In this document: one piece after another, positions 5,493 to 53,600 of the stretch
How positions within the stretch are numbered: the stretch's first letter is position 1
Layout: each line of letters opens with the position of its first letter
From: Centroscyllium fabricii
Taxonomy: Eukaryota
Assembly (NCBI GenBank): GCA_051313645.2
Contig: JBNRSN020000014.1
Coordinates: 145,390,001 to 145,454,000 of the forward strand
DNA: 64,000 nt
Direction of reading: 5' to 3'
Position numbers and translations under genes: made by a program
Notes under the pieces: generated by a model
What the model saw: the letters and a program-made list of their open reading frames with translations, nothing else
What the model was told of the DNA's origin: nothing
The model's database searches: none

Positions 5493-5658
5493 ATGTCGTG
5501 TGTACATTACAAATTTTCCTCTAAACTGAACTATGACACGGTCACTTTCGATGGGCTTCATATTTCTTTGAGTGATCTAAAGAAGACCATCATGGCCAGA
5601 GAGAAGCTGAAGGCGGCAGACTGCGATTTACAGATCACCAACGCACAGACTAAGGAAG
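5493..5658 (+). CDS. RBBP6: RBBP6 coding exon 1 (DWNN N-half), 166 nt
   Basis: [55 protein letters not shown]; donor AAG|GTAAAT. Confidence 0.98.
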
Positions 5659-11600: not shown

Positions 11601-14600
11601 TATCAGTTATGATGTCTATTTTCCTCTGTTCATGCCCTGAGGGATTCCGATACCGTTGTTGTCTGCGTATGACTTTGATTGTTAAATGGGTTATGTTGAA
11701 AACTATTGAGCACTGTACAGTGGGAAAGTCAAAGCGTGTGTAGCTAAATACAAAAACAATTCAATTTATTTAAAGTTTTATTACATTTGTTCAGAATTTG
11801 AAGCCTCTTTTAATAAATTTCTTCAAACTCTAGTGTGCAGCATATAAGCCAAAAAGAGTTTGGGGGTGGGGGGAAATCATGCTGTGGTGCTCAACCCATG
11901 AGTGATGAGGCTTTTCCCCACCAGCAAGCTGAGGATTGTATTCCACTGTCCCATGTGCACGTACAATGCTTCATGATCACATGCTTCAATAGCATTAAAA
12001 CTAGCAATCAGTTAGAGCTGTGTTGAGTAATGAGTTGGGCTCCTTTTCTCTACAAATAATGTTAGAAGAATCAATACATTTGTGAAAAGAAAAGATGTAA
12101 CACTGACGAGGTGGTTTTATACCTTCGATCTTTTACACACACGGGAATCCTATAATGTTGAAAAACTACTGTATCCCAAGATGTGTTGCACTGCTCAAAC
12201 CCTCACAATATTACTTTGTGCTCGTTCAAGACTACTGTACTTTCATCAAATAATACTTTCCAGTAAATTGCTTTTGGGACTTTTTCCCCCAAACGTACTT
12301 TAAAGTGACAAGCTCTTTGGCTGTGACTGCAGCCAGTTTCCAAATTATCCACACACAAAAGCTATTTTACAGTAATGTTAATCTCCCAACATGTGACCAA
12401 AAATACCGTGATGCCCTCCTCCAAAAGCTGTTCCGAGTAAGAAACCAGTCTCTGATCCAAGCCAGACAGTTTCCAGATTATTAATAAAGGAATTTAGTGA
12501 AACAGCCATGCACTTCATAGTTGCATCAAATATTGATGAAAGTTATGCCTTGTATTCTGACACTTGTACAATAACGGTCTCTTAATTCTTTACAGAATAC
12601 ACAGATGATAATGCTCTAATCCCTAAGAATTCATCTGTCATTATAAAAAGAATTCCTATTGGAGGCGTGAAATCTGCTGGCAAAACATTTGTCATGTAAG
12701 TATCTGCAATTTTTTCATAGAAAATAAATGTCTATTGTATGTTTATGGAGCAGCATCTTTAAACAGCTTGAGAATGATTGGTGTTTTTCAGAGCTTTGCA
12801 TTTTAACAGTTAGCATTCTTGTATTTTGAGGGATGCAATTTCACATTTAATTGACCAATAGGAAGTTGTGCCGTGGTTATCATGAAAGTGGATTTAACTA
12901 GTTGCGTGAAATATACATGCACTCGACATTCCTTCGTTTTTCCATTTTAGATGTGACTGACTGGCAGATAAGGCTTTAGTGAGTATTTAAGGCCCACAAC
13001 TCAACCCTGTAGGTCTGTAATGCATCATGTGCTCACATATTTTGATGCATAATGTAAATGTACACACACTATTGTCTTGGAGGAAATGACAGGCTGCCTG
13101 TAACTGCAGTGATAAAGGATGGTGGCTGTTAAGTTCAATATAAGCACAAAGTGCACATCAAATGCACAAAATATAGAAATGTAACTGACGCATTATATTT
13201 CAGAATTGTTTGGAAAGTTCAAGAATAAAATGTAATATAAAACTGTCTGAGGTTTGGACCTGGAAGCGATGAGGATGGACACTCATCGCATTGCTGGCCA
13301 TTGTGCCATTCTCTTGCTACTGTGCACTTAGCAAACTTAGCCGATAGCTATCCAAGCCAAATACGATCCACAGGGCAGACCTTGGCCCTTTTGTGTGTTG
13401 AACAGTCACCCCAAGTCCGAGGTTATAACTGAAGATATATTGCCCCCAAAAAATCTGTCATCTTCAAACTTCAAGGCAGTGTCCAATATTTTGACTTCAT
13501 GGGCTGTTTAGGTCAATACTTTCGACGGTATATAAAGTTTACATTACTGTTCGCATTAATTTGCATATAACTAACCTGATCCAGGTGTACTGATTTAGGT
13601 TTATCCACCGACAAGACAATCTTTCCAAACAAGAAGTCTGACTCACTAATCGAACCAAGTTGTAATGGTTAGAGGGCTGGTAATGGCCATGCTCAATAAA
13701 TTGACCTTCCTAATCTAACTACTAAATTTTTCTTTTGTTTTTGCCCTGAGATGCCCCGAGAAGCACGATCAGTGTGCACTTTCTTGCAGTAGTTTATGTG
13801 CTCAGTTTGCCTCCTTCTGAACTTGGCTAAAGATATACAGCAGAATCTAGTCATATTTTCAAAATTAATCATTACATTGCTGTGAATCCAAAATCAACTT
13901 TCTGAAAGTGATCACTTGGCATAGCAGCTGGGCCGCCTTCATTTCAGATCTGGGGAGGGGTGCCTGTATGTGATTTTGGTTAGCCAGTAATGCATTTGAG
14001 GATAGCAAGTACTTGATGATTCAAGGAGATGCACTTGGGAAGGATATCGAGCCATTTCATTATGGTGGGAATCGAGTCTATTAGGAATAATCTGAGCTAT
14101 TTGGAAATGTGAGCTGCTCCAAAATCTCATTCCACTCACACCAGGGGAAGTGTGGCATTTAACCCAAAAGAAACTTGTTTTGTCTCCACCAGTTTGTGTG
14201 GAAGAAGCCGCACAACTCCAGTTCATGGAGTAAAAGTTTAATCTTTAGGCTTTCCTGTTCCATTAATCTCCCTCCATGCAAATGTTCAACATCATTGTAT
14301 GCTTTCACCTGTATGATGGTGTCGGAGCATGCTGATTCAAGTTCTATTAATTTGGACTCCAGTAGCTTTTTTTTAATCTATTGATGGGATGTGGGTGTCA
14401 CTGGCTGGCTAGGCCTGCATTTAGTGCCCATCCCTAATTGCCCTTGAGAAGATGGTGGTGCGCTGCCTTCTTGAACCGCTGCAGTCCATATGGTGTCGGT
14501 ACGCCCAAAATGTTAGGAAGGGAGTTCCAGGATTTTGGCCCAGCGACAGTGAAGGAGCGGCGATACAGGTCCAAGTCAGGATGGTGTGTGGCTTGCAGGG

Positions 14601-17600: not shown

Positions 17601-20600
17601 CCAAAGTGCTTCAAGTACAACACATTACTTTGAAGTGCAATAAGTGTTATGTAGGGAAGTGCTGTGTTCAGCAAGATGCCACAAGCAGCAATAAGATGAT
17701 TGTGGCACGGTGGCATAGTGGTTAGTGCTGTTGCCTCACAGCGCTAGGGGCCCGGGTTCAAATTAGGCCTCGGGTACTATCTGTGTGGAGTTTGCACATT
17801 CTCCCCGTGTCTGCGTGGCTTCCTCCCACAGTCCAAAGATGTGCAGGTTAGGTTGATTGGCCAGGATAAATTGACCCTTCGTGTTCGGGGATTGAATGTG
17901 TGGGGGTTACGGATAGGGTGGGATATGTGTCGGTGCAGGCTCGATGGGCCGAAATGGCCTCTATCTGCACTGTAGGGGTTCTATGATCTGTTATTGGCCA
18001 AAGGAGGGAATGTTGGTCAGGACACTGGGAAAACGCCCTGCTCTTCACACAATGTCATGGGATTGTACACATCCACACTTGAACCACTGGAATAGACGGT
18101 GGCCCACACTCAGTACTGTACTGGAGTGTCAGCCTTGAATGCTCAAATCTGAGAATTGAGGTTTAGTAGCCTGTCGAACTCCTGCTCAGGCCAGTGGAAT
18201 TGCTGCAGGTAGTTTCAGGACAGACAATATTATATCAACCAGTTCTTTATTATTTTGAGGTGTAGGCATGTGTTTGTCGAGGCGAATGTTGTCCGTACTG
18301 GTTAGATTAATTTTCTGTCACTATCATTCCACAGAAATGTGTTTAAGCTCCTTGGGTTAACTGTTTGACTTTAAAAGGACTTAGATTCAGAATATTGGTT
18401 TTACTGCATGTGACCCATCCATCATCTCACAGATGCTTTCAACCAAGAGGATAAGGCAAGCAGGATAACAGAGCTTTTTAGTGGAGAATGGGCTAAGTGA
18501 AAGCCTTTCCACACTGAGGGCCAATCATGATTCCTTTTTACTGAGCTGTACAATTTATGGTTGTTTTGAAACTCCATTTTGACTGCTGCATTTTTTTTGA
18601 CCTTGAATAGTCCCTCAAGCTTTTTCTTTCAAAGCCCACTGGTAGCATTGTTGATTGAGAATTTGTAATGATACAATGATTCTGTAGTTCACTCTGATGC
18701 TAAATACTTTGGCAGCCAATGTTTTTTTCCTCTTCATCAACTTGTTCTTTCTAGATACATTCTTTTATCTGTCTTATGTTTATCTTGTAAATGAAAAGTA
18801 CATGACTAACATCTTTCCAAATTATCTTCTGCTTTCCAGAGATCGTTCTGAACCAGCAAGTGGGACATCGAAAGCAGTATGTAAAACAAAAATACAATCT
18901 GAACCTTTCTTTTCTTTATTTGTTAAATCTAAGTTGCTATTTTTAAATGAATGATAACCATTAGACAATAATGTTAATGATTTTTTTAAATAATAATTTT
19001 CAAAGCATTGCATAAACTAAGTATACCATGATGCATATCTGACCTGGGTATGTTTTGTAATGCCTACTAAAATGCATTCGTAGTATTTTAAAATACTGTT
19101 GGATAATATTTCAAGACAATTGCCCATATCTGCACATATTATCTGTGTGTGACCTGATAATGGTGCACGGTAATGCACTGTATTTCACATTGAAAATGCT
19201 AGTTAATTTCTGTATGACTCGGTGTTGTACAGATCAGTGTATGATCATTTTCAGAGCTTGTGGTTGCAACAGTTTACAATAGTGAACATGAAAGTGTTCA
19301 TGTGATGTCTGTCTTTATTTAGTATTACATGTGTATAGGCTATTGTGTGCATTTTGTTTCTTCAAATAAAGAATGTTTGAAGTGTATTATCTTCCATTTC
19401 ACATTGTATCACTCAACTTTTTATGGTTTAATAGGTCTGATTTCTTGATGGTGAAACAGGTTGCTTTACACTACGATAAGGCACATGAAAAACCACATTA
19501 GACCCCAGTATCGAATGGATATAAAGCAAATGTTGAATTTGTGCAGTTCAACACTTCCTTCCTCTATATCCTATTTTCACAACAGCACAAGTTTTTTGAA
19601 ACTTTGAGCTCAAACAAACTAAAATTTGACAAGTATCATTGAGTCCCAGAAATATTCAATCCTTCTGTTATTGTTTAATTTTTCTTTTCTGGCCACAGAA
19701 CTTTGCAAATAAATGGAAGTCAGTAGGCTTTTGTGGTGCTATTTCAGTTATACTGGTGTATTTTTATGTCTATTGGTAACAAACTGATGTGTTTCATACC
19801 GTATGTACATGATTTTTCACTTGCACACCACAGAAATCCCCTGACTTGTCAATTTAAAGCTTAATTCTGGCTGTTTTGCCCTTATATGTGATATCTGTGA
19901 AGTAAAAGTTGGATGCTTTTTGTTTGAGCTTTTTTTATAATATATATCCTAAAATAATAAACTTTCATCATGTTAAACTTTGTGCGCGTCAGGCACATTT
20001 AGAATTTGGTTGTCTACTTTATTAATAGATGCAGCCAGTTAATATTGGCACTAAATGTTTGGTTTGATTTTGAATCTCCACACATTTGGGAAACTTAACA
20101 TGAAAAGTAGCTTGCAAACGTTTCTACTGAATTCTCTTAAGCCACATAAAATTGCTATCATGGACTTGTCATTCTACATTGTTGGAAGTTTCAACGTTAC
20201 TAAATGGGACTGGCTAATGGGCCGGTGTCAGCCATGACTTTTATGTCAAATCAGATGTTGGTGTAGTTTGCGGTAAAAAAAAATAGCAGATTTTCCATGA
20301 CAGCCCAGGTGAATGCCCGGTTATGTCAACAATGGCCTTTTTTGTCTGTGTTGCTTTGCTTTGAGCCAATGCGCAAGATCTCAAAAGACCGTGTAGTTCC
20401 TTTGATTTTTGAATATTCTGGTAGGTTTTTAAATGGAGAGTAAGCATTGCCGTGCTACTGTATTTTTTTTAAAGTCTTAGCCACTTGCTGTCTTTTTAAA
20501 GTACGTAGCACCTACTTATTGATGCAATTCAAAATGTATAAATAACGAGTGTTTATATAGTGCCTTTAACGTAGTAGTGCATCCCATGGCATTTCACAGG

Positions 20601-23600: not shown

Positions 23601-26600
23601 TTAAATATCCACAACTGAGCATCCACAGCCCTGTGGGGTAGAGAATTCCGAAGATACACGACCAACAAATCTCTCTCTATTGGTGGTTGAAGGAGGAATG
23701 TTGGCTAGGATCGGAGAACTCCCTGCTCAGCTATTGATTTGTGTCATGCAGTCATAAATATTTGCCTCAACCACTGGAGCAGGCAAATGGGACCATGCTT
23801 TAATGTCTTGTCTGAAGGATGAGACCTAAATACATAATTAAACATTGGGCCACCTCACTGAATGAAAGACCAGCTGCTCAATTTTAACACCACTAGCACA
23901 AGAGGGGGAGGTGGTGGTGGTGGCGTAGTGGTTATGTCACCAGACCAGTAAGCCAGAGGCTCAGTCAAATGCTTTGAGGATATGGGTTTAAATCCCACCA
24001 CGGTGGCTGGTGGAATTTAAATTCAATTCAATTTAATTCGGCAATTAAATGTTAGTCTTAGTAATGGCGACCATTGTCGATTGTTGCAAAAACCCATCTG
24101 GTTCACTAATGTCCTTCAGGGAAGGAAATCTGCCGTCCTTACCTGGTCTGGCCTACATGTGACTCCAGACCCACAGCAATGTGGTTGACTCTTAATGCCC
24201 TCTGAAATGGCCTAGCAAGCCACTCAGTTGTAAACAACCGCTACGCAACATTGTGGGTGTACCAACACCATACGGACTGCAGCGGTTCAAGAAGGTGGCT
24301 CACCACCATCTTCTCGAGCAATTAGGGATGGGCACTAAAATGCAGGCCTAGCCAGCCAGCGACGCCCACATCCCATCAACGAATAAAAAAAGAAGAGGGT
24401 ATCAGGAAGAGAATTGAACCTACTGTGGTATGCAACACTGTTACAGGTTGCACTGGTATGTGTGTCAATTCACTGGGGCTAAACTGATCTGTGGATGTCT
24501 CATGATGCTCGTTTGTTTGCATTGATATGTGACTAAAACCCTCCAGTGATGAGTTTGGAACATTGGTTCCAATTAGTCCTGCCTATTGGTAACTCAGGAT
24601 AGGAGTGGGGAAGGAACGAGTTTACATGTTATTGTTCCTTCGTGTTTGGAAGTGTGTTGGGTCCACCCTAATCCTCAAACACAACAAGAAGTAAACAGTT
24701 AACACTTGTTAATTGGAAGGGTTTTTTTGCGCACACAAAATTCCCAGCTAGAGAATGCTTTGAATTAAGCAACGTAATGTAACCAAGTGGAAATTTAGTG
24801 CTAAAATGATTTATCAGATCATTTGAATGAAGTGTTTACGATTCAGATTTTTACAGTTTGTAACAATCTTGGACATTGTGTGTGGAAAGGACTGACCAGT
24901 TTACTGTGAGGGAACTCTTGTACTTCGATTTTTAATGTTTTAATCTATACACTGGTTTGAATCTTTCAATGTCATCTATAAACTAATGTAATCCATCAGC
25001 TTGCCCTTGTACCACCATCGCCCACAAATTTCATGAGCACACTTGGCAAAGCATTGCAAAGCAATACTGAATGCTAAACTGCTTAGAGTGTTATAATTCT
25101 TAGTGAGCCTTTCAATAGTGAAGGAATCTTAACCAGTAAATGTCTACGTTCTTGCTATTTTCTAGCAGTAGGGTATTGATGGTGTACTTTGATACTTTTC
25201 TTAATGTTTCCCTGAGCTGAATGCCTATCCTCCTGTAGTTATGGATGTGTCGGGGCTCTCCCTGGCTTGTATATTTTTGTATTTGTAATGGAGGTTTGAT
25301 ACGTTGAGCTATTCAGTAACTTCCGCTCAGTAATGTTTAACTCATGCATGGTATTTGTGCCACTGTTTTTCCACTTTGTGTTTGTCTTGATCTGTTTCTG
25401 TTTATTTTTCTATTGTTTTTAAATTCATAGTTTTCCTTCATTCTGTTTTGTCAAGTTTTATCCTTCTGCTCATGGATGCAGCAGGGGAAGGCAAGAGAAA
25501 GAGGTGTCCGACCTAGTTGCCAGACTGCAGGGAAAGCTGAGCGAGGTCAGTGTTTAGCAGTAGTAGTGGGATGTACAAATACAGGTTGAGCACCGTTAAT
25601 CCGGCAGGGTCGGGACTAGCGCCCTGCCGAATTGTTGAAAACGCCGAATAATGGAAGCTTCGGGGGCGCGTGCGCAGAGCATCCAAAATGGCCACCGCGA
25701 AATTTTGAACGCTCTGCGCATGCGCTGCCGGTACCTGGAAGGTGATTTTCGGCCCACTGGTCGGGTGGAACTCAGGACGCACTCGATTCTGCTGCCCATG
25801 GCGGATCAAGGAGCGGGCTGCACAGCTCCAGCGGGCCTGAGGCCCAATGTGCGGCTCAAGCTCGGCTCACGTGATGCCGCCGCACGCCAGCTTCGGAACG
25901 TGGTGATGTCAGCACGCAGCAGCCTGGCGGAGCCGGGCGCCGAGTTTTGGCTCTACCGTGTCCTGCGAAAGGCGGTTGGCACAACAGCTCATCTTCTGGG
26001 CCTGGGATTCACATCGGCATCGGGGTGGTCACTAAGCCGGGATCCAGTGGGTATCTGTTAGGTGAAAGGGAAGCCCAGCCCCGAAGGCGGCCATTTTGAA
26101 TTGTCTGGACATGCGCCGGGCAGTGGGGAAAATCTGTGCTGGACGACTGAAGCTGCCGGTTCTTTGGGTACTGGGTTAACGGTGCTCAACCTGTATACCA
26201 AGTATGATGTGGAGGTGCCGGTGTTGGACTGGGGTGGACAATTGCAAGAAGTCACACAACACCAGATTATAGTCCAACAGTTTTATTTTAAATCACAAAC
26301 CTTCGGAGCGTTCGCCCCTTCGTCAGGTGGAAAGAGAGACTGACCTAAAGAAAACACAGGAAGGGAGAAATCCGATCTCTCCCACATCTCACGTCAGCAG
26401 AGACAGACCAAGCACACACAGGCATATTAACATATTTTAACACATCAGTCCGGGCACAGTCGCAAGGGGGGTCAAATGCTGCAAAACACAATGATTTAAA
26501 AAAAAAGGAATTTCCTTACAAGACAAAGATGTCCCTAGTCCGGATGACTCTACGTCAGGCAGGGTCACGTAGCGTGACATGAAGCCAATTTGTGATTTAA

Positions 26601-38600: not shown

Positions 38601-41600
38601 TTATTCCCTTATCAGCTAACACACGGGTACACGTAGCCTTGACTTTGTGCAGTGCCACAAGAGGTTAACTGGAATTGTATTAGCAACTTTACATGTGTGT
38701 CCACCAATGTTCGCTGTCATTTCTTTGGCCCTGCGCTGCCCCTTTAAAACACGCAGTTTATACATTGAAAAGCCAGCTGCACGGGTTCCCTGGAGCACGG
38801 CACAACTTAAAGGGAACATTGGTGTCCACTGCCCGTGGCGGCTTTTCCCCGTCATAAATGCCTGTCTCCACATTTACAATGGGAGCTGCCTGTGTAAGCT
38901 TGTCACGCTGTAATTACACCTTTTCTGCCAGTAGTGGTACTGTAGCACCGCAGTTTTACGCCTCCCAGGTCCTCTACCTGTACCGAAGAGAAACTCCTGC
39001 GCTGCGACCAATTCTATTCCCCTAAGTTTTGCTATTTAATTATACATATCAAATGATAATACAGGTTGAGCACCGTTAATCTGGCACCCTCGGGACCAGG
39101 CCGGTGCCGGATTACTGAAAATTCCGGAGCACTGAAGGTTCGGGGGGAGCGCGTGGTGGAACACTCCCCGGGGCCCGGAGCGAGCGGTAGAACACTCCCC
39201 GGAAGGGGGCCCGGGGAATAGAACACTGTCCAGCAGCAACCCCGACGCTCGCCCACCCTTCGCGGGAACCGGTGCCGCCACCGAGCGGCTGCTGCACAAA
39301 CTGAAGGCCGCTGGTTTCGATTCGTGCTGCCGAACCACTGAAGCTGCCGGACCTTCGAGTGCCGGATTAACAGTGCTCAACCTGTATGTTAGAAGTAAGG
39401 ACCGTGTATGATTTTAAAATAAGGGTGAATTCCATCCATGTGACCTGATCCAATTACCTCCCACCCTCTAACTCCACTTTACCTGAAGATTTCACACTTG
39501 GCCTAGACTCCCCGTTTGCAGTGCCATGTAAGGTCAGCTAATATTTAAAATACTAGTTAGGAAAGCTGTTGTACCTCCAATAGGTAATGCTGCAACAACT
39601 TCTGTTCTTGCTCCTGAGTTGGTGCTGCAACTCTAAGAAAGTGATTGATTGCAAGAGTACCTATTCTTTGTTCCAAAGAAGGCAATTTAGATTTTCATTC
39701 TGTTGCCACAAACACAGCTGAAGGAAATGCTGTTTCCTCCGATTATCTGTGAGCAAGGCCACAGGACATTGCATCTAATTGTATAATAGACTAGTCATAG
39801 TCCGGGAAGGTGAGCAATGGAGCAGCAGAAAAAACATGCACATACAGGACAATGCATGTAGAGTAAATATATTTCTTAATCAATTCAGAGGTCAACCAGT
39901 ATCATTTTATTTTTCACCTGAAGTACAGTCTGTCATGGCAAAAACAGTTTCACTGTATTTGAAATATGGGATGAAGGGAGTAGTCATTGCTGCTATTCAT
40001 GGTGCACAATGGAAATAGTGGCTCCTGAGCACCTGCCGTCCTGTGCAGGCAGCATTCTTGCACACTGCCTCCCACTGTCAATAATGGATGGTGGGGGTGG
40101 ATCTGAAGACACTTGGTTTGTCACACCTACCCAAGATGTCTTGTTCTCGTTTCAGCCTCACTTTTTTTGATCTATCTTAAATGTGGAGAACAAGGAAATC
40201 ATATGAATGTAGTTACTGATTCTGTAAGTTAGACTTGATGTCCTCAATGCACTCGAATAAACTAACTGGACATTGTCTGGATGAGCGTAATGACCCTAAT
40301 ACAGTACTTTAAATGCCTGGAGTGCAGTTTGGGATTTTACTAGTTTTTACCACCCCACGGTCGTCATCACATCCTTAGCAGCTCAACACATGGAGCTGAC
40401 ACTCTTCCCACCCAACCCCCATACTTTGCTGGGCAGAAAATTAACATTGGTACAAGATTCTCGCTCGCTCGCACCAATTTCATATAGTTTTTCTGTAAAA
40501 CATTTAAATCCTTTTTCAGTTCTGTTCTATGTTGGAGTGGCAACTGTATGCAAAGTCACTTCCTTTAGCACTGAGCTTATACTGTGTGATATTTTGCACC
40601 CCTGTTCATCTATTAAAGCACAGTCTGAACCCAACAGTTATATTTAAGAGCGTTTCATTGTAGTGTGAATTTTATTCTTATCCCCCGCCCCTCCCCACCA
40701 CACACTACATGTACACTAACTATGGACAGTATAAAAGAATGCTTATGCAGGTGAGTTTAACTGAAATGTGAGAGTAATGACCAGGCTGTCTATTTGGGTT
40801 TGAAATATGTGCCTTATCATGGTTTAAATGTGAATGTCTGTATTTAATTCTTCCATTAACAGATTGATGACTCTGGAACATCTATCTCTCTGGCCCAGCT
40901 TACAAAGGTAGAAAATGTTTTTTTTGTTGTTAGTGGTGTCTTTTTTCCTGCAAATTCAATTCATTGCAAAGTTTAATTGTATTAAATGTTGCACTAATCT
41001 GTAATTGTCCCATGCATTATCCAGCACAAATTTACATTAATGCATTGTATATTATCATTTTGCATAATGTTGCGTATATTCAAATGCATTTAATGTCATT
41101 AAAAGGTATTGTAATTTGTGTCAATGTTAGTAGCCTGGAACATGAATATATACTGAATATCCTGTAAAGAGTGAGTGATATGGGGATGATGGAAGGGGAG
41201 TCCCTCGACAGCCTCACCTAGCTACCATAATGCACACCTACCTCAGTCAGCTTTGAAAATGCAGCAAGATCAAACCTTAGCTTAATGTCTTGCTTAAATC
41301 TGGGATGCGGTGAATACTAAATCGGTTATTTCACCTGTTGGCTTTGAACACCTCGCCAGTAAAGAAGGCGGTAGAAGAATGGAAAAGCCCAGATCACTGG
41401 ATACGGTGATTGGTATGAAGGTTCTCGCCTTTAGCACAGTCAAATCCATGTACGGCTGTAAACAAAAGGACTGTTACCTCAGCAATACAGCCAAGAATTG
41501 AAAGCTTCCTTTGTTGATGTTATTAAAAGTATAAATCTTGTGTGTAAACTTTACCTGAATTTTACAGCAATGTCTATACAGTCAAATAATCATGAATTGA

Positions 41601-44600
41601 ATAAGTGTATTCCAATCCCGTGTTGTACTGACCCATGCATAGCTTAGCTTGGACCATGTAAATGTAAACCACTAAATACAATAAACTATGTTCTCTTTTA
41701 AGATCAGATGTTGGAAAGGATGTATATGGGTGGTCATTTGTTTGAACACAGACTGAACCTATGTGAAATCTGTGTATTTGTTGCTGTGTCTTTATGTAGC
41801 TGATCTATAGGGAGAGACGAGTATTAGTCATGGTAGTCAATGCTTGTGGCATGGGGAGAACAAGGTGCGGATGTCAGTTATTACTCAGTGTTTTTACATT
41901 GCCCAAACTTGCTGTACTTACCCTCCTGGTTTGTAGATCTCTCTGAATATTCTGAATTTAAACCCAATGTTACTATGTGTGCAGTAAACACATCCTCATT
42001 TTAGCACACCTGCAGAACCACACACCCATGCACTGGTATCATTTCTAGCCTCTGGTTTTTTAATATAAAGTAAAATGCTGTTTGGGTTCAAACAGATGTG
42101 TTTTGTGTGTGAGGTACAGTCAAACCTTGATAGGATCAATCTCCATTTGCTGCACCACGGAATTGGAGCTAAATTACTACATGACACCTGGATAATGGGT
42201 GAGCAGTGAGGTTTTCTCATCTGTGGGGCTCTTGATGTGCGAGCCTCACAGCATTGAGTTAGGTGTTCCAGTGGGCATTTAGTTGAATGGTATTCAAGCA
42301 CCGAGATTCGTTTGTTGAAATCGAGTGATTTCTTCGTGTAGCATACTGTTTTTCCAATGATTTTATTTCTAATCATTCCTGAGATACATTTAAATACTAT
42401 GTGAATTCTTTCTGAAATGCAGAGGTTACTCAACATTTCATTCGTTGTTAACATCATGAGTCAGGTGGTCTAATGGGACAGATCGCAGTGGCTGTTCAGC
42501 ATGTAGCCTCCCTCCTTTTACGAATCAGCATCCCACGTGGATATCTTATTCCATCCATTGGCATGGGTTGCATTTATACTGTCTGGAAGAGTAAGACATT
42601 TCCTCTTAGCCAGGAGAAGTGCTGCGTTGACCTGTTCCAGAGCCTGGTTTGAAAACCTGCTGCAGCTACAAAGAAGGCGTTTCCTTGCTGTGACCAGTAC
42701 TTTGCCAATCCACTCCTCATACGGGTTCTGTCAAATTCTGAGGAATGTCCAAAAAGAGGTTCCATGTTGATCAGTATCGCCCATGAGCTGTCATTTTGCT
42801 AATAGGAAATTGCCCAGAAACTTCAGGATTGATGCATCAAGTGCAAATACTCGAATATAAAAATCCGAATGCCACAAGAAGGAACCTGTTCTCAGTGCAG
42901 ACCCCTTCCAGGTGGCAGCAGGGAATGTGACTTTGATGTGTTCATGACTGCTGATGCTGGACTGCGCTGTGACTGCATTTGGAGAGCACTGAAGCATAAT
43001 AATTCGGTATCTCGGCTGTGCATGGAATCTATAAAATCTTGTTTACAGAAGTATAAAATCTGCTGCGTAAAGGTATAAAAAGCCCGCTTCCATGAAGGTA
43101 AGTGCTACGGTATATCCGAATCTCAGGCCCTGCCTGGGAAAGGCTTCAGTCATCCCGCAGCTGGAAAACTGGACTCACTAACTGAAGCATATACTCTGAA
43201 TCTGAAATACACAAGCTGGTGCTGCAAGAAGCCACAGGTTGTTAGTATATCAAGTTCCACACACTGGCAGTTTGAGCCAGAGGGAGGCTAAGATAATTGC
43301 AGACCATAGTCATTTAATACTCTAACTCATTTTCCATGGGGACACACCACAGTACTTGAACCTTGACTGAAATTCCTGAGCAAAGTGATGTCTTAATTCC
43401 ACCTACAGGAAACTTTTTTTTTTAAATCCGGGACCGGCGTGGTGCCGGTTTATCAGAGTCCAGATTACAGAGGTGCAGTAAACGGTGCGAGAATTCAGTA
43501 CACCAACAGATCCAGGCGTCTCTGTTGCTTAGCAACGGGTGCAGGAACCCCGGCCGCAAGATCAGGCTTCCTTGTTGCTTAGCAACAGGTGCAGGAACCC
43601 CGGCCACAAGATCCAGGTGTCCCTGTTGCTTAGCAGGTGCAGGAACCCTGATTACACGGCCACAGATCCAGGAACGGCCGCTAATATGAAGTAAAACTTA
43701 GCCGAGCCTACTCCTGAATTTTGCTGGTTAACAGAGATTTCCGGTTATCTAGGTGCCGGTAAATCGAGAGTTTTCTGTAGTTGGACATTTTCCTACCATT
43801 CTGGGAACCACTCAAACCCTATTTGAATTACGAGCTTTTGAGAGGACCTTGATTACCACTTAGGGCACAAACTATTTCATTGTCTTGAAATTCAGATCAA
43901 CCCATGATGACTCTTCTCATTTCTTCCCCCTCTCCTCTCAATTGGTGGGAGCCTATATTCTACAATGCTACCAACTATCAAGGAAAATGTGTGGTTTCCC
44001 CCCCACCCACCCACCCTCAAATGAGCTATTTATGGTTCGTAAAAAGTTAAATTATTCACCTTTAGGTCTGTTGTGCTGCTCATTCTTAACGTGAACTTGT
44101 TCATATTCCAAATTGCCCCTCCTTTCCTTTCGGGTGACTCCCGACGGGTTTGATTTCTGTGTTGTACTCTACAGGTAGTTTTTTGCATGACTATTTTGGA
44201 CAAACCGTTACTATCATTGATCAACGTTTGAGTAGATTGGAGTCCTTGCTTAATGTTATGGTTTTTAGCTTCCTTTGGTCTAGTATTTTTTTTTAAACCC
44301 AGAAAGTGACCATGGGAGTGCTACATGAAGGGGATGGATGGTGTGAAGATGAAAATCTCAATGACTGGTTCAGTTTAAAATCTGACTTAGCTGTGTGGAA
44401 TCACTGAAGGATGATGAATACTGCAGCTAGCAGTGAGAGCACTGGAACAAGCCCCTTGGGACTAGCAGAAAAATACAGGTCCACCTTCTGCTACCCATGA
44501 CGTAGAGAGAGATGGAGAATATTTCTCCATGTAACTGAAGTTCTTCTATCTGCAAGACCCAGCAGAATGAGGCCATTCTTAAGAGTGTAAACCAGTAATG

Positions 44601-47600: not shown

Positions 47601-50600
47601 AAGCAGAATTTACAGGAATGTAACTGTCGGCAGAGCTGATCTTACCAAGGGTTTTACTGTACATGTGTGAGATTGTTTGAAATGGTGCCCAAGGCTGATT
47701 TGTGAGTGTAAGCTGTGGAATTGAACCTGAATGGCTAGGTGTGGCTGTAGGTGTGGCTGTGTGGGAGCTTCGACGAACTTTGCTACATTCCATCGCCCAT
47801 GCTCGGACTGTCAGCATAGCTAAAGGTTTTAATTAAATTACTGTAAAATGGAGGAAGAGGAGAAACTGACCCCAAGTCACGTCCCCTAACTAAAAATAAG
47901 TCTCTTGGCAGCTGTTTTATATTTCGTGCAAGTTTACATTTTGCTTCCCATTTAATTCAAAATAATTTTATGATTTTTTTTAATTTAAATTTTATATGAA
48001 CTGGGTTTTTATACTTGTTACACTGAGGCTGCAGCATTGATCCAGAAGTGAGTGATCTTCATTCAGTCATTGACCCAGCTTTCAGCGTTGCCTCTCTGTC
48101 TTTTTGCTGAAACAAGTGCGAGATTACAGAAGCATGGACATCGTTCTGATTGGCCAACAGCCCCCCCCCAAATAATCCACTTCAGTAAAAATTCTTCCTT
48201 GCTAATTTTTTTTTGCAAAAGAGCATTTCTGCTTCAATCTTCTCTTTTTGCAGGATTTTCCACATCCGTAACTAATACAATTTTCATTTTGGTCTTAAGA
48301 ATTGCAAATAGTAAAATCAACCTCAGCCGCCTTTATTGAGGTTGTGACATGGAACTGAGGATTTCAGTGGGGTCCCTAGAACATTAAATTGAACTGCGTG
48401 TAATGCCTTCAACCATCTAAAAGTATTATAATTGGCTGCAGGTAGCAGGCTTGAGGAACTCCCCCCGCCCCCCCCCCCCCCAGATCATCAGCAAACTGGA
48501 TGGAAGGTGGTATATATATAAAAGTAGACTTACTGATCGTATAATAGCAATAGGGACAGGACTTCCTGCTACTCTTTACAGGATGTGCACTGGAGTGTAT
48601 AGTAAATTCTGGGTAACAACCTTTTTTGTAACACACGCCTATCAAACAGACGGCCAATCTGGCTGAAGCTAATGCCTCAGAGGAAGATAAAATTAAGGCA
48701 ATGATGACTCAGTCTGGTCAAGAATATGATCCAGTCAAGTAAGTTGGAAAGAAGAAGCAATTTCAAATTTTTATTGGTTGATACCTCACAGAGAGCAATT
48801 GACAGTATGTATTAATGGTATTTTTTTAAATTTTCTTTCGTAGTTACATGAAGAAACCTTTGGGTCCTCCTCCTCCAACATATACTTGTTTTCGTTGTGG
48901 AAAACCTGGCCATTACATTAAAAACTGCCCAACAAATGGGGTGGGTAAACATGGTTCAACCTTATTATGTAGTAACAATACTGTGTGTTGCTCTTGAAGT
49001 GTGATCCTGAAACTACCTGCCTTCTCTGGCCAGTGTGCAGCAATGGTCAAACTGGAGGAACAAGTTGGTCCAGTCGGGAATGCTTCAGAAATGTATTAAA
49101 ACATTTTGCTAGTGGTGGAACAAAATTGCTGCAGGTTGTACATTTATTGTATTTGATCTAGCATGGAGCCTTTGATCCTTCTCTTTGAGGTATCCACTTG
49201 AAGCACTGGTCATCTGCTGGACATGTGGCCAAATCTAACCATGTTAGGCAACTTCATTTGCTCATGCATTATTCGCTGCCGAGATGGATGGATTTCCTTT
49301 TAACCCTTTTGGTAGAGTTGGAGCGTAGCAAGTTCTAAAATTAAGGCAATTCAAATTGTGTTTTGTCCTGGCATTGGAGTGAGCCTCGGGCTTGCCAGGC
49401 AAAGTGAAACCGGGTTCCTTACAGATGTTGAGAGCCGGAAATTGATCCAACGCTTGGCTTTAATGCACGCTCACTGCTCCACGATACAGCTGCAAAACTG
49501 GGTCTTCGTAATTATAGACAAGCTTCGAAGTCAAGGTGGTGGCTGTGAGATGTATGCCAGTTCAGCATTAAACGCTCGGACTGCAGATTCCTAATGTATG
49601 GGCGCTGCTGTATTGCATACAGTTTAAAAATAAATACAGGTACTTTGTTTTGTTTTTGCAAAAATTCAGGACAAAAGTTTTGAAGCTGTGCCAAGGATTA
49701 AGAAGAGCACGGGGATTCCCCGCAGTTTTATGGTAGAGGTTGATGACCCAAGCATTAGGGGTGCGATGCTCACCAACACTGGGAAATACGCCATTCCCAC
49801 AATTGATGCGTAAGTACTTTAACTTCTGTTAACTACAATACTGGGCTGCTAGTCTGCTGGATAGTCAGTCTTAGTTAAAAATCCCTAATACATATGTAGG
49901 ACTCACGTGATGCAAGGGGTTTAAGCTCCACAACTGTGCAATTCTCCCATTAACATTTTCCATCCTCCTTTCCTTAATTGTTTTCCCAGGCAGTCATTCT
50001 CCATGTTAACCAACCTCCGCATGAAATAATTAAATCTAAAATCTCTGTGAAATTCTTATGGGAATAAAATTGAATTGTAATATGTTTGGATTGTCACACG
50101 TTCTAAGCTTGAGAACTTGCGGTAATCTCAAATATATTGGAGTTCAATTTATCTATTTCCTTTATAAACTTAAATACTGGAGAAAGCTCGGAGGAGCTAG
50201 TGTTTTTCTCTGAAGAATGCAATCCCAGGCTGTTCACCCTATCGTCCTAGTTCAAAAGCCTTAAACTGGGCATCGGTTTGGTTGACTTTTTCTGAGCTAC
50301 TCCAGTGAAGAGGGAAAAGACAGGTTACCATTTTGGATGAAGGGTCTGTACCCAAAACATTAGGCTGTCTTCACTGGCATGCCGGCTCTGTATTCTCAGC
50401 ATTTCTGTCTCTTTTTAGATTTTCAGCATTAGTCTTTTTTTTGGTCTCTGCTGCAGCTTCAGTATCTAACTATTAAATGTTTTGTATTCTAGAGAAGCAT
50501 ATGCACAGGGCAAGAAGGAAAAGCCACCATTCTTGCCAGAGGAGCCCTCCTCATCGTCTGAAGAGGAAGATCCAATCCCTGATGAACTGTTGTGCCTTAT

Positions 50601-53600
50601 CTGCAAGGATCTTATGATGGATGCTGTTGTCATACCATGCTGTGGAAACAGTTACTGTGATGATTGTAAGTGACCTGGGGAATGCATTGCCATTCAAACA
50701 AAGCCTGAAGCAGTCAGCCACTGTGCGATTGCTCTATTCACCCACCAATGTATCGTGTGTATAGAAACATAGAAGATAGGAGCAAGAGTAGGCCATTCGA
50801 CCCCTCGAGCCTGCTCCGCCATTTAATGAGATCATGGCTGATCATCCAAATTCAGTACCCTGTCCCTGCCTTCTCCCCATATCCCTTGATTCCTTTAGCC
50901 TTAAGAAATATATCTAACTCCATCTTGAATATATTTAATGAATTGTCCTCCACCGCCCTCTGTGGTAGAGAATTCCACAGGTTCACCACTCTCTGGGTGA
51001 AGAAATTCCTCCTCATCTCTGTCCTAAATGGCTTAACCATTATCCTTAGACTGTGACCCCTGGTTCTGGACTCCCCTGCCATCGGGAACATCCTTCCCGT
51101 GTCTAGTCCTGTTACAAATTTATAAGTTTCAATGAGAACCCCTCTCATTCTTCTAAATTCTAATGCGTATAAGCCCAATCAACCCAATCTCTCCTCATAC
51201 GTCATTCCAGCCATCCCAGGTATCAGTCTGGTGAATCTTTGCTGCACTCCCTCCATGGCAAGAACATCCTTCCTTAGATAAGGTGACCAAATCTGCACAC
51301 AATACTCAAGGTGTGATCTCACCAAGGCCCTGTACAACTGCAGCAAGACATCCTTGCTCCTGTACTCTAATCATAGAATCCCTACAGTGCAGATAGAGGC
51401 CATTTCGGCCCATCGAGCCTGCACCGACACATATCCCACCCTATCCCCGTAACCCCACATATTCACTCCCCCTAACACTAAGGGTCAATTTATCCTGGCC
51501 AATCAACCTAACATCTTTGGACTGTGGGAGGAAACCGAAGCACCCGGAGGAAACCCACGCAGACACGGGGAGACTGTGCAAACTTCACACAGATAGTCAC
51601 CCGAGGCCGGATTTGAACCCGGGCCCCTGGCACTGTGAGGCAACAGTGCTAACCACTCTGCCACCGTGCCGCCCAGAAGGCCAACTCTCGCTGTGAAGGC
51701 CAACATACCATTTGCCGCCTTAACCGCCTGCTGCACCTGCATGCTTACCTTCAGCGACTGATGCACGAGGACACCCAGGTCTCGTTGCACTTCCCCTTCT
51801 CCCAATCTATTGCCGTTCAGATAATCTGCCTTCCTGTTTTTGCCACCAAAGTGGATAACCTCACATTTATCCACATTATACTGCATCTGCCCAATCTCCC
51901 AACCTGTCCAAATCAAACTGGAGTTTCTCTGCATCCTCCTCACAGCACACACGCCCACCCAGCTTTGTGTTGTCTGCAAACTTGCAGATATTATATCTGT
52001 GCAATGATCTGAGTGCAAGTAATTTTGTGTATTTAGTCTTAACTGTACTTTGTTGCTTTCCCTCCTATTGCTGTGTGCAGGTGTCAGAACATCACTACTG
52101 GAGTCGGAGGAACACACCTGCCCAACCTGCCACCAAACGGATGTTTCTCCTGATGCTCTGATTGCGAACAAATTTTTAAGACAGGTATTGCAACTAACAT
52201 ATAATTCAAGAGTTTTGATGATCTGCATAGCATTTCAATTCAAAATCTAATAGCCTCTATCTTTAAACTTGCATGTATATGAAATAAAATGGATCTGTCT
52301 GGTGGTGACATTGTCATTCTAAATCTAATTTACTGACAACATATCCCTGTACAATTCTGATTTGGCAGCAATAAGTTGCAGTTCAGTTTATAGCAGATCT
52401 GTCTGTGGTATGAAATACACTCTTAAACTGTTCTAAAAATTTGAGTGGAAATGGAAGTGTAATTTATTTGAGGTGTGTGTTGGGAACAGGATAGAATGGG
52501 GTGGAATTTCAGAACTTAATTCTCAGCCGTAGAATTCTTTTATTTGCAGGCTGTGAACAACTTCAAAAATGAAACTGGTTACACAAAAAGAACTCGCAAG
52601 CAACAGCAGACCCAGCAGCAGCGTCAAGCTCCGTCCCATCAAATGCTCAGTCAGCAATCCGGTCTGAGGTCATTACCTCAGCTCAACCCTCCGCCCGTTA
52701 CCCCTGTAAGCAGAACAGCCATCTCCAAGCCACCAGAAATGCCAGTCACCACTACGACTCAGGCTGGCCACACTTCCGCCCCAGCGCCTCTTCCAAGTGC
52801 AGCTTCTGCCCCAGTACGTGCTCCTTCTCCGGTGAAAATTAGTCGAGCCTCCATTGCCAACGTCCCTGCTCCGGATGTGTCAACAGCATCAGTTCATGTT
52901 CATCAGCTACCTCCAAAATACGAGGAAGGCGATAATCTGTAAGTTTCATTCTCATTGGAACCTTTTAAGGACTGCAGTAACATCTTGCTGTCCGCTTCAC
53001 AAGAAAATTATTTTAGTACAGGTGCACAATCCCTTATCCGCAACTCCAAAAACCGAAAAGCTCCAAAAACCAAAGTTTTTCTTGAATCATTTTTTTCTTA
53101 AATAAATTGAAGCTGTTGATGCCGTGCTGAGGGGAAAAAACGGCCGATCTCCCGTTACCCGACTGCGAGCTGGGCCGCAAACACGGAAATGCGCATGCGC
53201 ACTGGGGTCAACTCTTTAAAACCGTATTTATCCGAAAACCGAGACTCGCCCGGTCCCGAGGTTTTCGGATAAGGGGTTGTGTACCTGTACTTGGATATGT
53301 ACCTGAAGTGCCGTAACCTATAGGGCTACAGACCAAGAGCTGGAAAGTGGGATTGGGCTGGTTAGCTCTTCTTCAACCAGCACAGACCTGCTGAGCTGAA
53401 TGGCCGCCTCCTGTGCTGTAAATTTCTATGAATAGCTCACACAGAATCGCTGGGATTTCTGCACAAGAGGCCACTCAGGCCAGTTTTTGTGCCACTGCTA
53501 CACATGAAATGCACATGTTCTGTACATTTCTACCATTAAAATCAATATTTCATCAATTTCTTTCTCCGCTAATCTAGGCTTCTTGATTAGATTCCAGTGT

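Follow-up and report, generated by a model that had tools for sequence, protein, structure and literature searches.

In Centroscyllium fabricii, the 5' end of RBBP6 intron 3 corresponds, with a probability of roughly 0.82, to the last exon of human RBBP6 isoform 3, and intronic polyadenylation likely terminates the transcript there. The window, i.e. the whole stretch of 64,000 nucleotides analysed here, carries RBBP6 on the plus strand with the motifs of the DWNN domain, the zinc knuckle and the RING domain in this order at 5493, 12596, ~48887 and ~50584-52119. The coding part of exon 1 (5493..5658, +) encodes DWNN residues 1-55 and was matched by phmmer to the solved human RBBP6 DWNN domain (PDB 2c7h, E=1.4e-30), exon 2 (12596..12695, +) contributes the remaining DWNN residues including R74 and the glycine pair GG 78-79, and exon 3 (18840..18876, +) comprises 37 nt and ends with the donor GCA/GTATGT, its last letter coinciding with contig ends in two sequencing runs of related species (X1 and X6). 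Exon 4 (40863..40907, +) is the rival splice partner which leads to full-length RBBP6.

Intron 3 measures 21,986 nt, compared to 6.9, 6.1 and 7.7 kb for introns 1, 2 and 4, respectively. The exon-3 donor agrees with the U1 consensus at 5/9 positions, as does that of exon 4, while the donors of exons 1 and 2 reach 7/9 and 8/9; this score is no more than a crude count of matching positions. As far as can be judged from the sequence, RBBP6 possesses both the weak 5' splice site and the large intron of the CSTF3/PCF11 type.

Read-through of the exon-3 donor (18876/18877) had been predicted to give a protein of 126 aa, and the reading frame bears this out, with a 25-residue tail closed by a TGA that ends at 18954. 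The product is DWNN-only and falls within the range of ~118-150 aa given for the known short DWNN form in Pugh 2006 (PMC1360078). Residues 1-81 share 76/81 positions with human isoform 3 (NP_116015.2), residues 1-101 match the RefSeq entries of Mustelus, Carcharodon and Cetorhinus without a difference, and D43, R74 and the GG pair are all retained. The tails of the shark and human forms both open with VCK at residue 102, and the proposed correspondence to human isoform 3 stands, since the same donor is used and the junction lies at the same residues 101/102.

The mechanism envisaged is a competition between two fates of the transcript. With its weak donor and a length of 22 kb, the intron would give cleavage and polyadenylation a chance to act before exon 3 is joined to exon 4; reading through the donor would yield the 126-aa DWNN-only protein, and intronic polyadenylation would likely end the transcript, most probably past the AATAAA at 19956. 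Judging from human data, the short form may lower full-length RBBP6, and with D43 and R74 in place it would compete with the full-length protein, thereby closing a feedback loop. According to PMC8887125, D43 and R74 are CPSF73-contact residues whose mutation in RBBP6 abolishes CPSF activation. The human isoform is reported in PMC4201286 to act as a competitor of the full-length protein and to inhibit cleavage in vitro as well as when overexpressed, an anti-DWNN blot having been used for the endogenous protein; autoregulation of RBBP6 is only proposed there, as 'an attractive idea', and a literature search covering titles and abstract starts returned nothing on RBBP6 feedback beyond this proposal. 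The favoured reading is that splicing and intronic polyadenylation compete and thereby produce an attenuating DWNN-only form which probably also acts as a competitor; for the feedback loop via short RBBP6 our analysis would put the odds at about even.

Rather unlikely, albeit conceivable, is an intronic site that is real and acts as an attenuator only, as described for CSTF3 and PCF11: it would divert transcripts from the full-length path, and the short protein with its arbitrary hydrophobic tail would be unstable and do little. Hydrophobic read-through tails promote protein degradation, and the elasmobranch tails vary in length (13-30 aa) as well as in frame. CSTF3 intron 3 moreover displays the same anatomy of weak donor, large intron and conserved site, with no apparent protein product (PMC3708835). 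Against this reading stands the intact DWNN domain with D43 and R74 kept, although full-length RBBP6 requires both residues anyway, and also the inhibition of cleavage by human isoform 3 together with the anti-DWNN blot of the endogenous protein (PMC4201286).

The original prediction described 18877-20540 as devoid of recognisable transposons, and its self-BLAST cover is indeed 0% as opposed to 42% for the remaining intron 3. This description is upheld because the search against the shark's own genome returned a single candidate for 18841-20540, while two control stretches taken from intron 3 gave 2575 and 3551. That the intron would be otherwise full of repeats goes somewhat too far, since other stretches of 1-2.5 kb are likewise without within-window repeat. 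The GC content of 33% ranks the stretch among the bottom 1% of 563 sliding windows.

Three AATAAA hexamers are found precisely where they had been placed, at 19365, 19708 and 19956. In 1000 dinucleotide shuffles 1.55 copies are expected for 18877-20540 (P=0.21), and for 18955-19990 the three observed copies compare with 0.87 expected from dinucleotide shuffles (P=0.056). The supposed abundance of TGTA does not hold, with 15 copies in 18877-20540 against 14.2 expected (1000 dinucleotide shuffles, P=0.45). Enrichment of TGTA and AATAAA was consequently rejected, both counts being at chance level. The 3' UTR predicted for the short isoform (18955..19990, +) is single-copy, has 32% GC and is 96-97% identical in three related species; its presumed 3' end at ~19990 is derived from the position of the last hexamer. 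This AATAAA (19956..19961, +) is the likeliest candidate poly(A) signal on the basis of its sequence, for which the positions of contig stops are a weak hint at most. It is surrounded by U-rich sequence upstream, TGTA at 19757 and 19804 and a G/U-rich segment at 19979-20023, and the hexamers at 19365 and 19708 are alternative candidates. Two other conceivable reasons for the conservation were discarded. An embedded non-coding RNA had a sole Rfam match, PCGEM1, at chance level (E=0.65, 26.8 vs 75 bits), and a hairpin masking the donor was rejected with a folding z of 0.19.

Sequencing runs of related organisms provide a view of the transcripts. There were 24 matching runs from six organisms besides the best DNA source, 18 of them guessed to be RNA (none recorded as such, which speaks neither for nor against transcription), and contigs of four runs from related species (X1, X2, X6 and X23) were placed on 18500-20540. 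In X1 and X6, which come from two studies and two organisms, one contig covers exon 3 and ends at 18876, and its loose end consists of the last 30 nt of exon 2; owing to this splice of exon 2 to exon 3, these contigs are RNA. A second contig extends from 18847 to 19947 in X1 (29 differences) and from 18847 to 19928 in X6 (37 differences, 10 gap letters). These intron-3 contigs are 96-97% identical to the shark sequence and run ~1.05-1.1 kb into intron 3, although they carry only 30 exon letters, one below the bridging rule. A 31-letter assembly graph that branches at the donor would be expected to give just such a start, 30 letters ahead of it. Since the spliced contig passes the exon-3 acceptor unbroken, the simplest view is that the read-through path continues spliced exon 2 and not intron 2, with the caveat that contigs drop rare variants. 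The contig layout points to RNA of related species in which exons 2 and 3 are spliced and which extends into intron 3.

The third run, X2, yields contigs at 19042-19911 and, separately, at 20151-20437. Thus contigs from three studies stop at 19911 (X2), 19928 (X6) and 19947 (X1), 9-45 nt before the AATAAA at 19956, yet contigs cannot show ends, and sequence of low complexity is found near these stops. The DNA-like run X23 has four short unrelated pieces only and no long piece, and it is thus no control. For these three reasons we only infer the poly(A) site. Contig depth was excluded as evidence, and so was the missing cover of X1 and X6 upstream of exon 3 or past 19947. As in the CSTF3/PCF11 type, sequence is conserved around the donor and the predicted poly(A) site, with 96-97% identity over ~1.1 kb in three related species, a skate match at 19723-19849 and a donor-adjacent fit to bony vertebrates, the contig cover ending before the third hexamer. 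The plus-strand X2 contig at 20151-20437, beyond this hexamer, may stem from DNA, from unprocessed or read-through RNA, or from a form with a longer UTR.

It is improbable that the conserved stretch merely represents the end of a retained or slowly spliced intron, or a region controlling splicing, so that the RNA would be unprocessed and no polyadenylated short isoform would exist. Such an interpretation could draw on the X2 contig past the third AATAAA, on the poly(A) motif counts at chance level and on contigs which do not carry a poly(A) end. It is at odds with the spliced contig of X1 and X6, which passes the exon-3 acceptor unbroken and branches at the donor only, with the curated human and mouse forms, and with a drop of conservation past the third AATAAA in X2 (19/730 differences in 19042-19771 vs 18/281 plus 16 gap letters in 20151-20437; Fisher p=0.008).

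The short form is widespread. Protein searches were represented by the best 120 of 218 and the best 120 of 334 matches, which together with 10 cluster look-ups amount to 253 proteins. Among the matches listed, 127/253 have no more than 220 aa and contain the exon-2 motif; 75 of these show VC[K/N] at the junction, 33 run on into exon 4 and 19 belong to neither group. Short proteins with VC[K/N] include, among the matches listed, those of sturgeon, bichir, eel, teleosts, frogs, snakes, birds and mammals, and human NP_116015.2 and mouse NP_778188.1 are curated short forms. RefSeq holds at least eight distinct short-form entries of 114-131 aa naming nine elasmobranchs (Hemiscyllium ocellatum, Chiloscyllium plagiosum, C. 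punctatum, Stegostoma, Mustelus, Carcharodon, Cetorhinus, Leucoraja and Amblyraja); as automatic XP models they may contain read-through calls caused by partial coverage, and exon-4 read-through forms are also called. Occurrence in sharks, skates, ray-finned fish and tetrapods supports the origin in the gnathostome ancestor claimed by the original prediction, and by parsimony this shared distribution dates the short form at least to the jawed-vertebrate ancestor. The tail is absent from the two Callorhinchus entries found. No lamprey, hagfish or invertebrate names occur among the matches listed (120/218 and 120/334), which is uninformative on the age.

Several observations concern further exons and ends in this region. 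In a model of the skate Rhinoraja (X8), exon 3 is spliced into sequence matching 19723-19849 (+) of the window; the tail scores 67 there and at most 44 in the other of 291 intron windows. The acceptor would be situated inside the predicted UTR, and the window contains an AG at ~19724-19725, yet the window frames are not open as in the skate. Within intron 3, a stop-free, frame-preserving segment of 90 nt flanked by AG and GT (25456-25545, +) is a candidate cassette exon. Its translation is 84-87% identical to inserts in RefSeq isoforms of Stegostoma and Leucoraja and would insert 30 residues between the DWNN domain and the zinc knuckle; regarding a transposon origin, none of the best 40 own-genome candidates scored covers it.

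Read-through is also conceivable one exon further downstream. The exon-4 donor AAG/GTAGAA (5/9) is followed by 22 codons up to a stop, and the segment 40908-41700 (+) contains ATTAAA at 40981, 41098 and 41522 as well as AATAAA at 41680 and is without within-window repeats. Short models of this kind exist for Mustelus, Rhincodon, Cetorhinus, Stegostoma, eel, pike, trout, Xenopus tropicalis (NP_988981.1) and manakin, and the exon-4 read-through may possibly constitute a second DWNN-only form. Four skate and carpet-shark models stop soon after exon 4, either with very short alternative ends or with an immediate stop, and no exon matching these four ends was present among the matches listed.

The tail of the 126-aa protein falls into two parts. 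The first 33 nt of intron 3 (18877..18909, +) comprise 11 codons whose peptide is identical in 8/8 elasmobranch entries, after which the sequences diverge, while the T-rich distal part including the stop (18910..18954, +) does not keep its frame among sharks and skates. When the distal tails are placed on the window DNA, Hemiscyllium uses frame 0, the skates and C. plagiosum frame 1, and Mustelus and Stegostoma frame 2, two of the eight tails being too short for placement. In run X6 a 4-nt deletion at 18905 shifts the frame within the tail. The conserved hydrophobic FF-containing tail of the original prediction can therefore not be maintained, the frame being kept neither among elasmobranchs nor in comparison to human. 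Hydrophobicity and FF follow from the 60% T content of the distal stretch, as its shuffles display a GRAVY of 1.71 +/- 0.65 (1.26 observed) and contain FF in 50% of cases. 'PFF' occurs in 4/8 elasmobranch entries, and the initial V-C residues are encoded by the donor GTATGT itself.

A comparison with bony vertebrates was carried out by the best possible back-translation of the seven residues following VC[K/N] at 16 offsets, with a maximum score of 21. The human peptide fits the shark DNA with 9/21 in frame but with 17/21 at offset +5 (P ~0.02 over 16 offsets), and the +2 frame of the window reads KNTI*TFLFF, which is close to human KNTISHFF. Eel reaches 17/21 at +7 and sturgeon 16/21 at +3, while the peptides of bichir, Denticeps, Xiphophorus and Cynoglossus gave no significant back-translation fit to the window DNA. 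For 32 distinct 7-mers of non-elasmobranch (bony-vertebrate) origin, mostly amniote variants and not independent, the mean best fit to the donor-adjacent DNA is 15.25/21, compared to 12.76 +/- 0.8 (max 14.78) for 200 random starts and 11.8-13.3 for four other donors. Thirteen of the 15 peptides scoring at least 16 are out of frame.

That the hydrophobic FF tail is an ancient functional element under selection at the protein level is the least probable explanation of all and, for the distal tail, largely refuted: the 11 invariant elasmobranch residues and the VCKNTISHFF common to human, finch, duck, gecko and rattlesnake, each clade keeping its own first 10-11 residues, could likewise be accounted for by protein-level selection within clades, but the best fits of human, eel and sturgeon peptides at different offsets (the human one in another frame), the three distal frames, the deletion in X6, the donor-encoded V-C, the behaviour of the shuffles and the patchy 'PFF' all speak against it. 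Selection instead appears to keep the nucleotides after the donor and in the UTR. On sequence grounds, the conserved unit of jawed vertebrates is likely the weak donor with ~30 nt of intron DNA, acting as an RNA element. More speculative, and on balance doubtful, is the extended proposal that the donor GTATGT and the next ~30 intron bases have since the jawed-vertebrate ancestor balanced splicing against intronic polyadenylation and that, together with a second such site in intron 4, they would form a two-step feedback sensor of 3'-end processing with the tail as a by-product.

The existence of an elasmobranch short form is already known from Pugh 2006, which ascribes the short form to all vertebrates (a preliminary statement) and describes its tail as poorly conserved (PMC1360078), and from the RefSeq shark and skate models. 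The shark and skate data presented here confirm the preliminary statement of 2006 that a DWNN-only short form occurs throughout the vertebrates; what they usefully add is a correction, namely that conservation does not reside in the tail peptide. Searching titles and abstract starts revealed no report of the shark form or of the tail frame shift, while supplements (e.g. of PMC7471841, PMC11331416, PMC4463644 and PMC13226542) or further papers may hold intron-3 alignments. As for the idea of RBBP6 feedback, the focus shifts to ~30 nt by the donor and to the UTR, both of which can be mutated in human cells with full-length RBBP6 left untouched.

Compared to human isoform 3 (iso3/DWNN, NP_116015.2, 118 aa), the shark form corresponds in gene, intron, DWNN-only architecture and the 101/102 junction with VCK. 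It differs in its tail of 25 instead of 17 aa, and past VCK the matching DNA is read in another frame. Poly(A) use and inhibition have been demonstrated for the human form only. The RefSeq models of Hemiscyllium (XP_060696735.1), Carcharodon (XP_041062469.1), Mustelus (XP_078096429.1) and Leucoraja (XP_055507423.1) are identical to the shark form at 98-101 of the 101 positions preceding the junction and throughout the first 11 residues of the tail, but deviate in frame and length of the distal tail (114-131 aa in total), the models being automatic.

Beyond RBBP6, the closest parallels are CSTF3 intron 3 (PMC3708835) and PCF11 intron 1 (PMC6428223), which likewise belong to genes of 3'-end processing factors and pair a weak donor with a large intron in which sequence is conserved; the latter paper includes RBBP6 among the genes with such intronic sites. 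In contrast to RBBP6, for which feedback is only proposed (PMC4201286), it has been shown experimentally for CSTF3 and PCF11. Unlike these two cases, the short form of RBBP6 retains a complete domain with reported dominant-negative activity.
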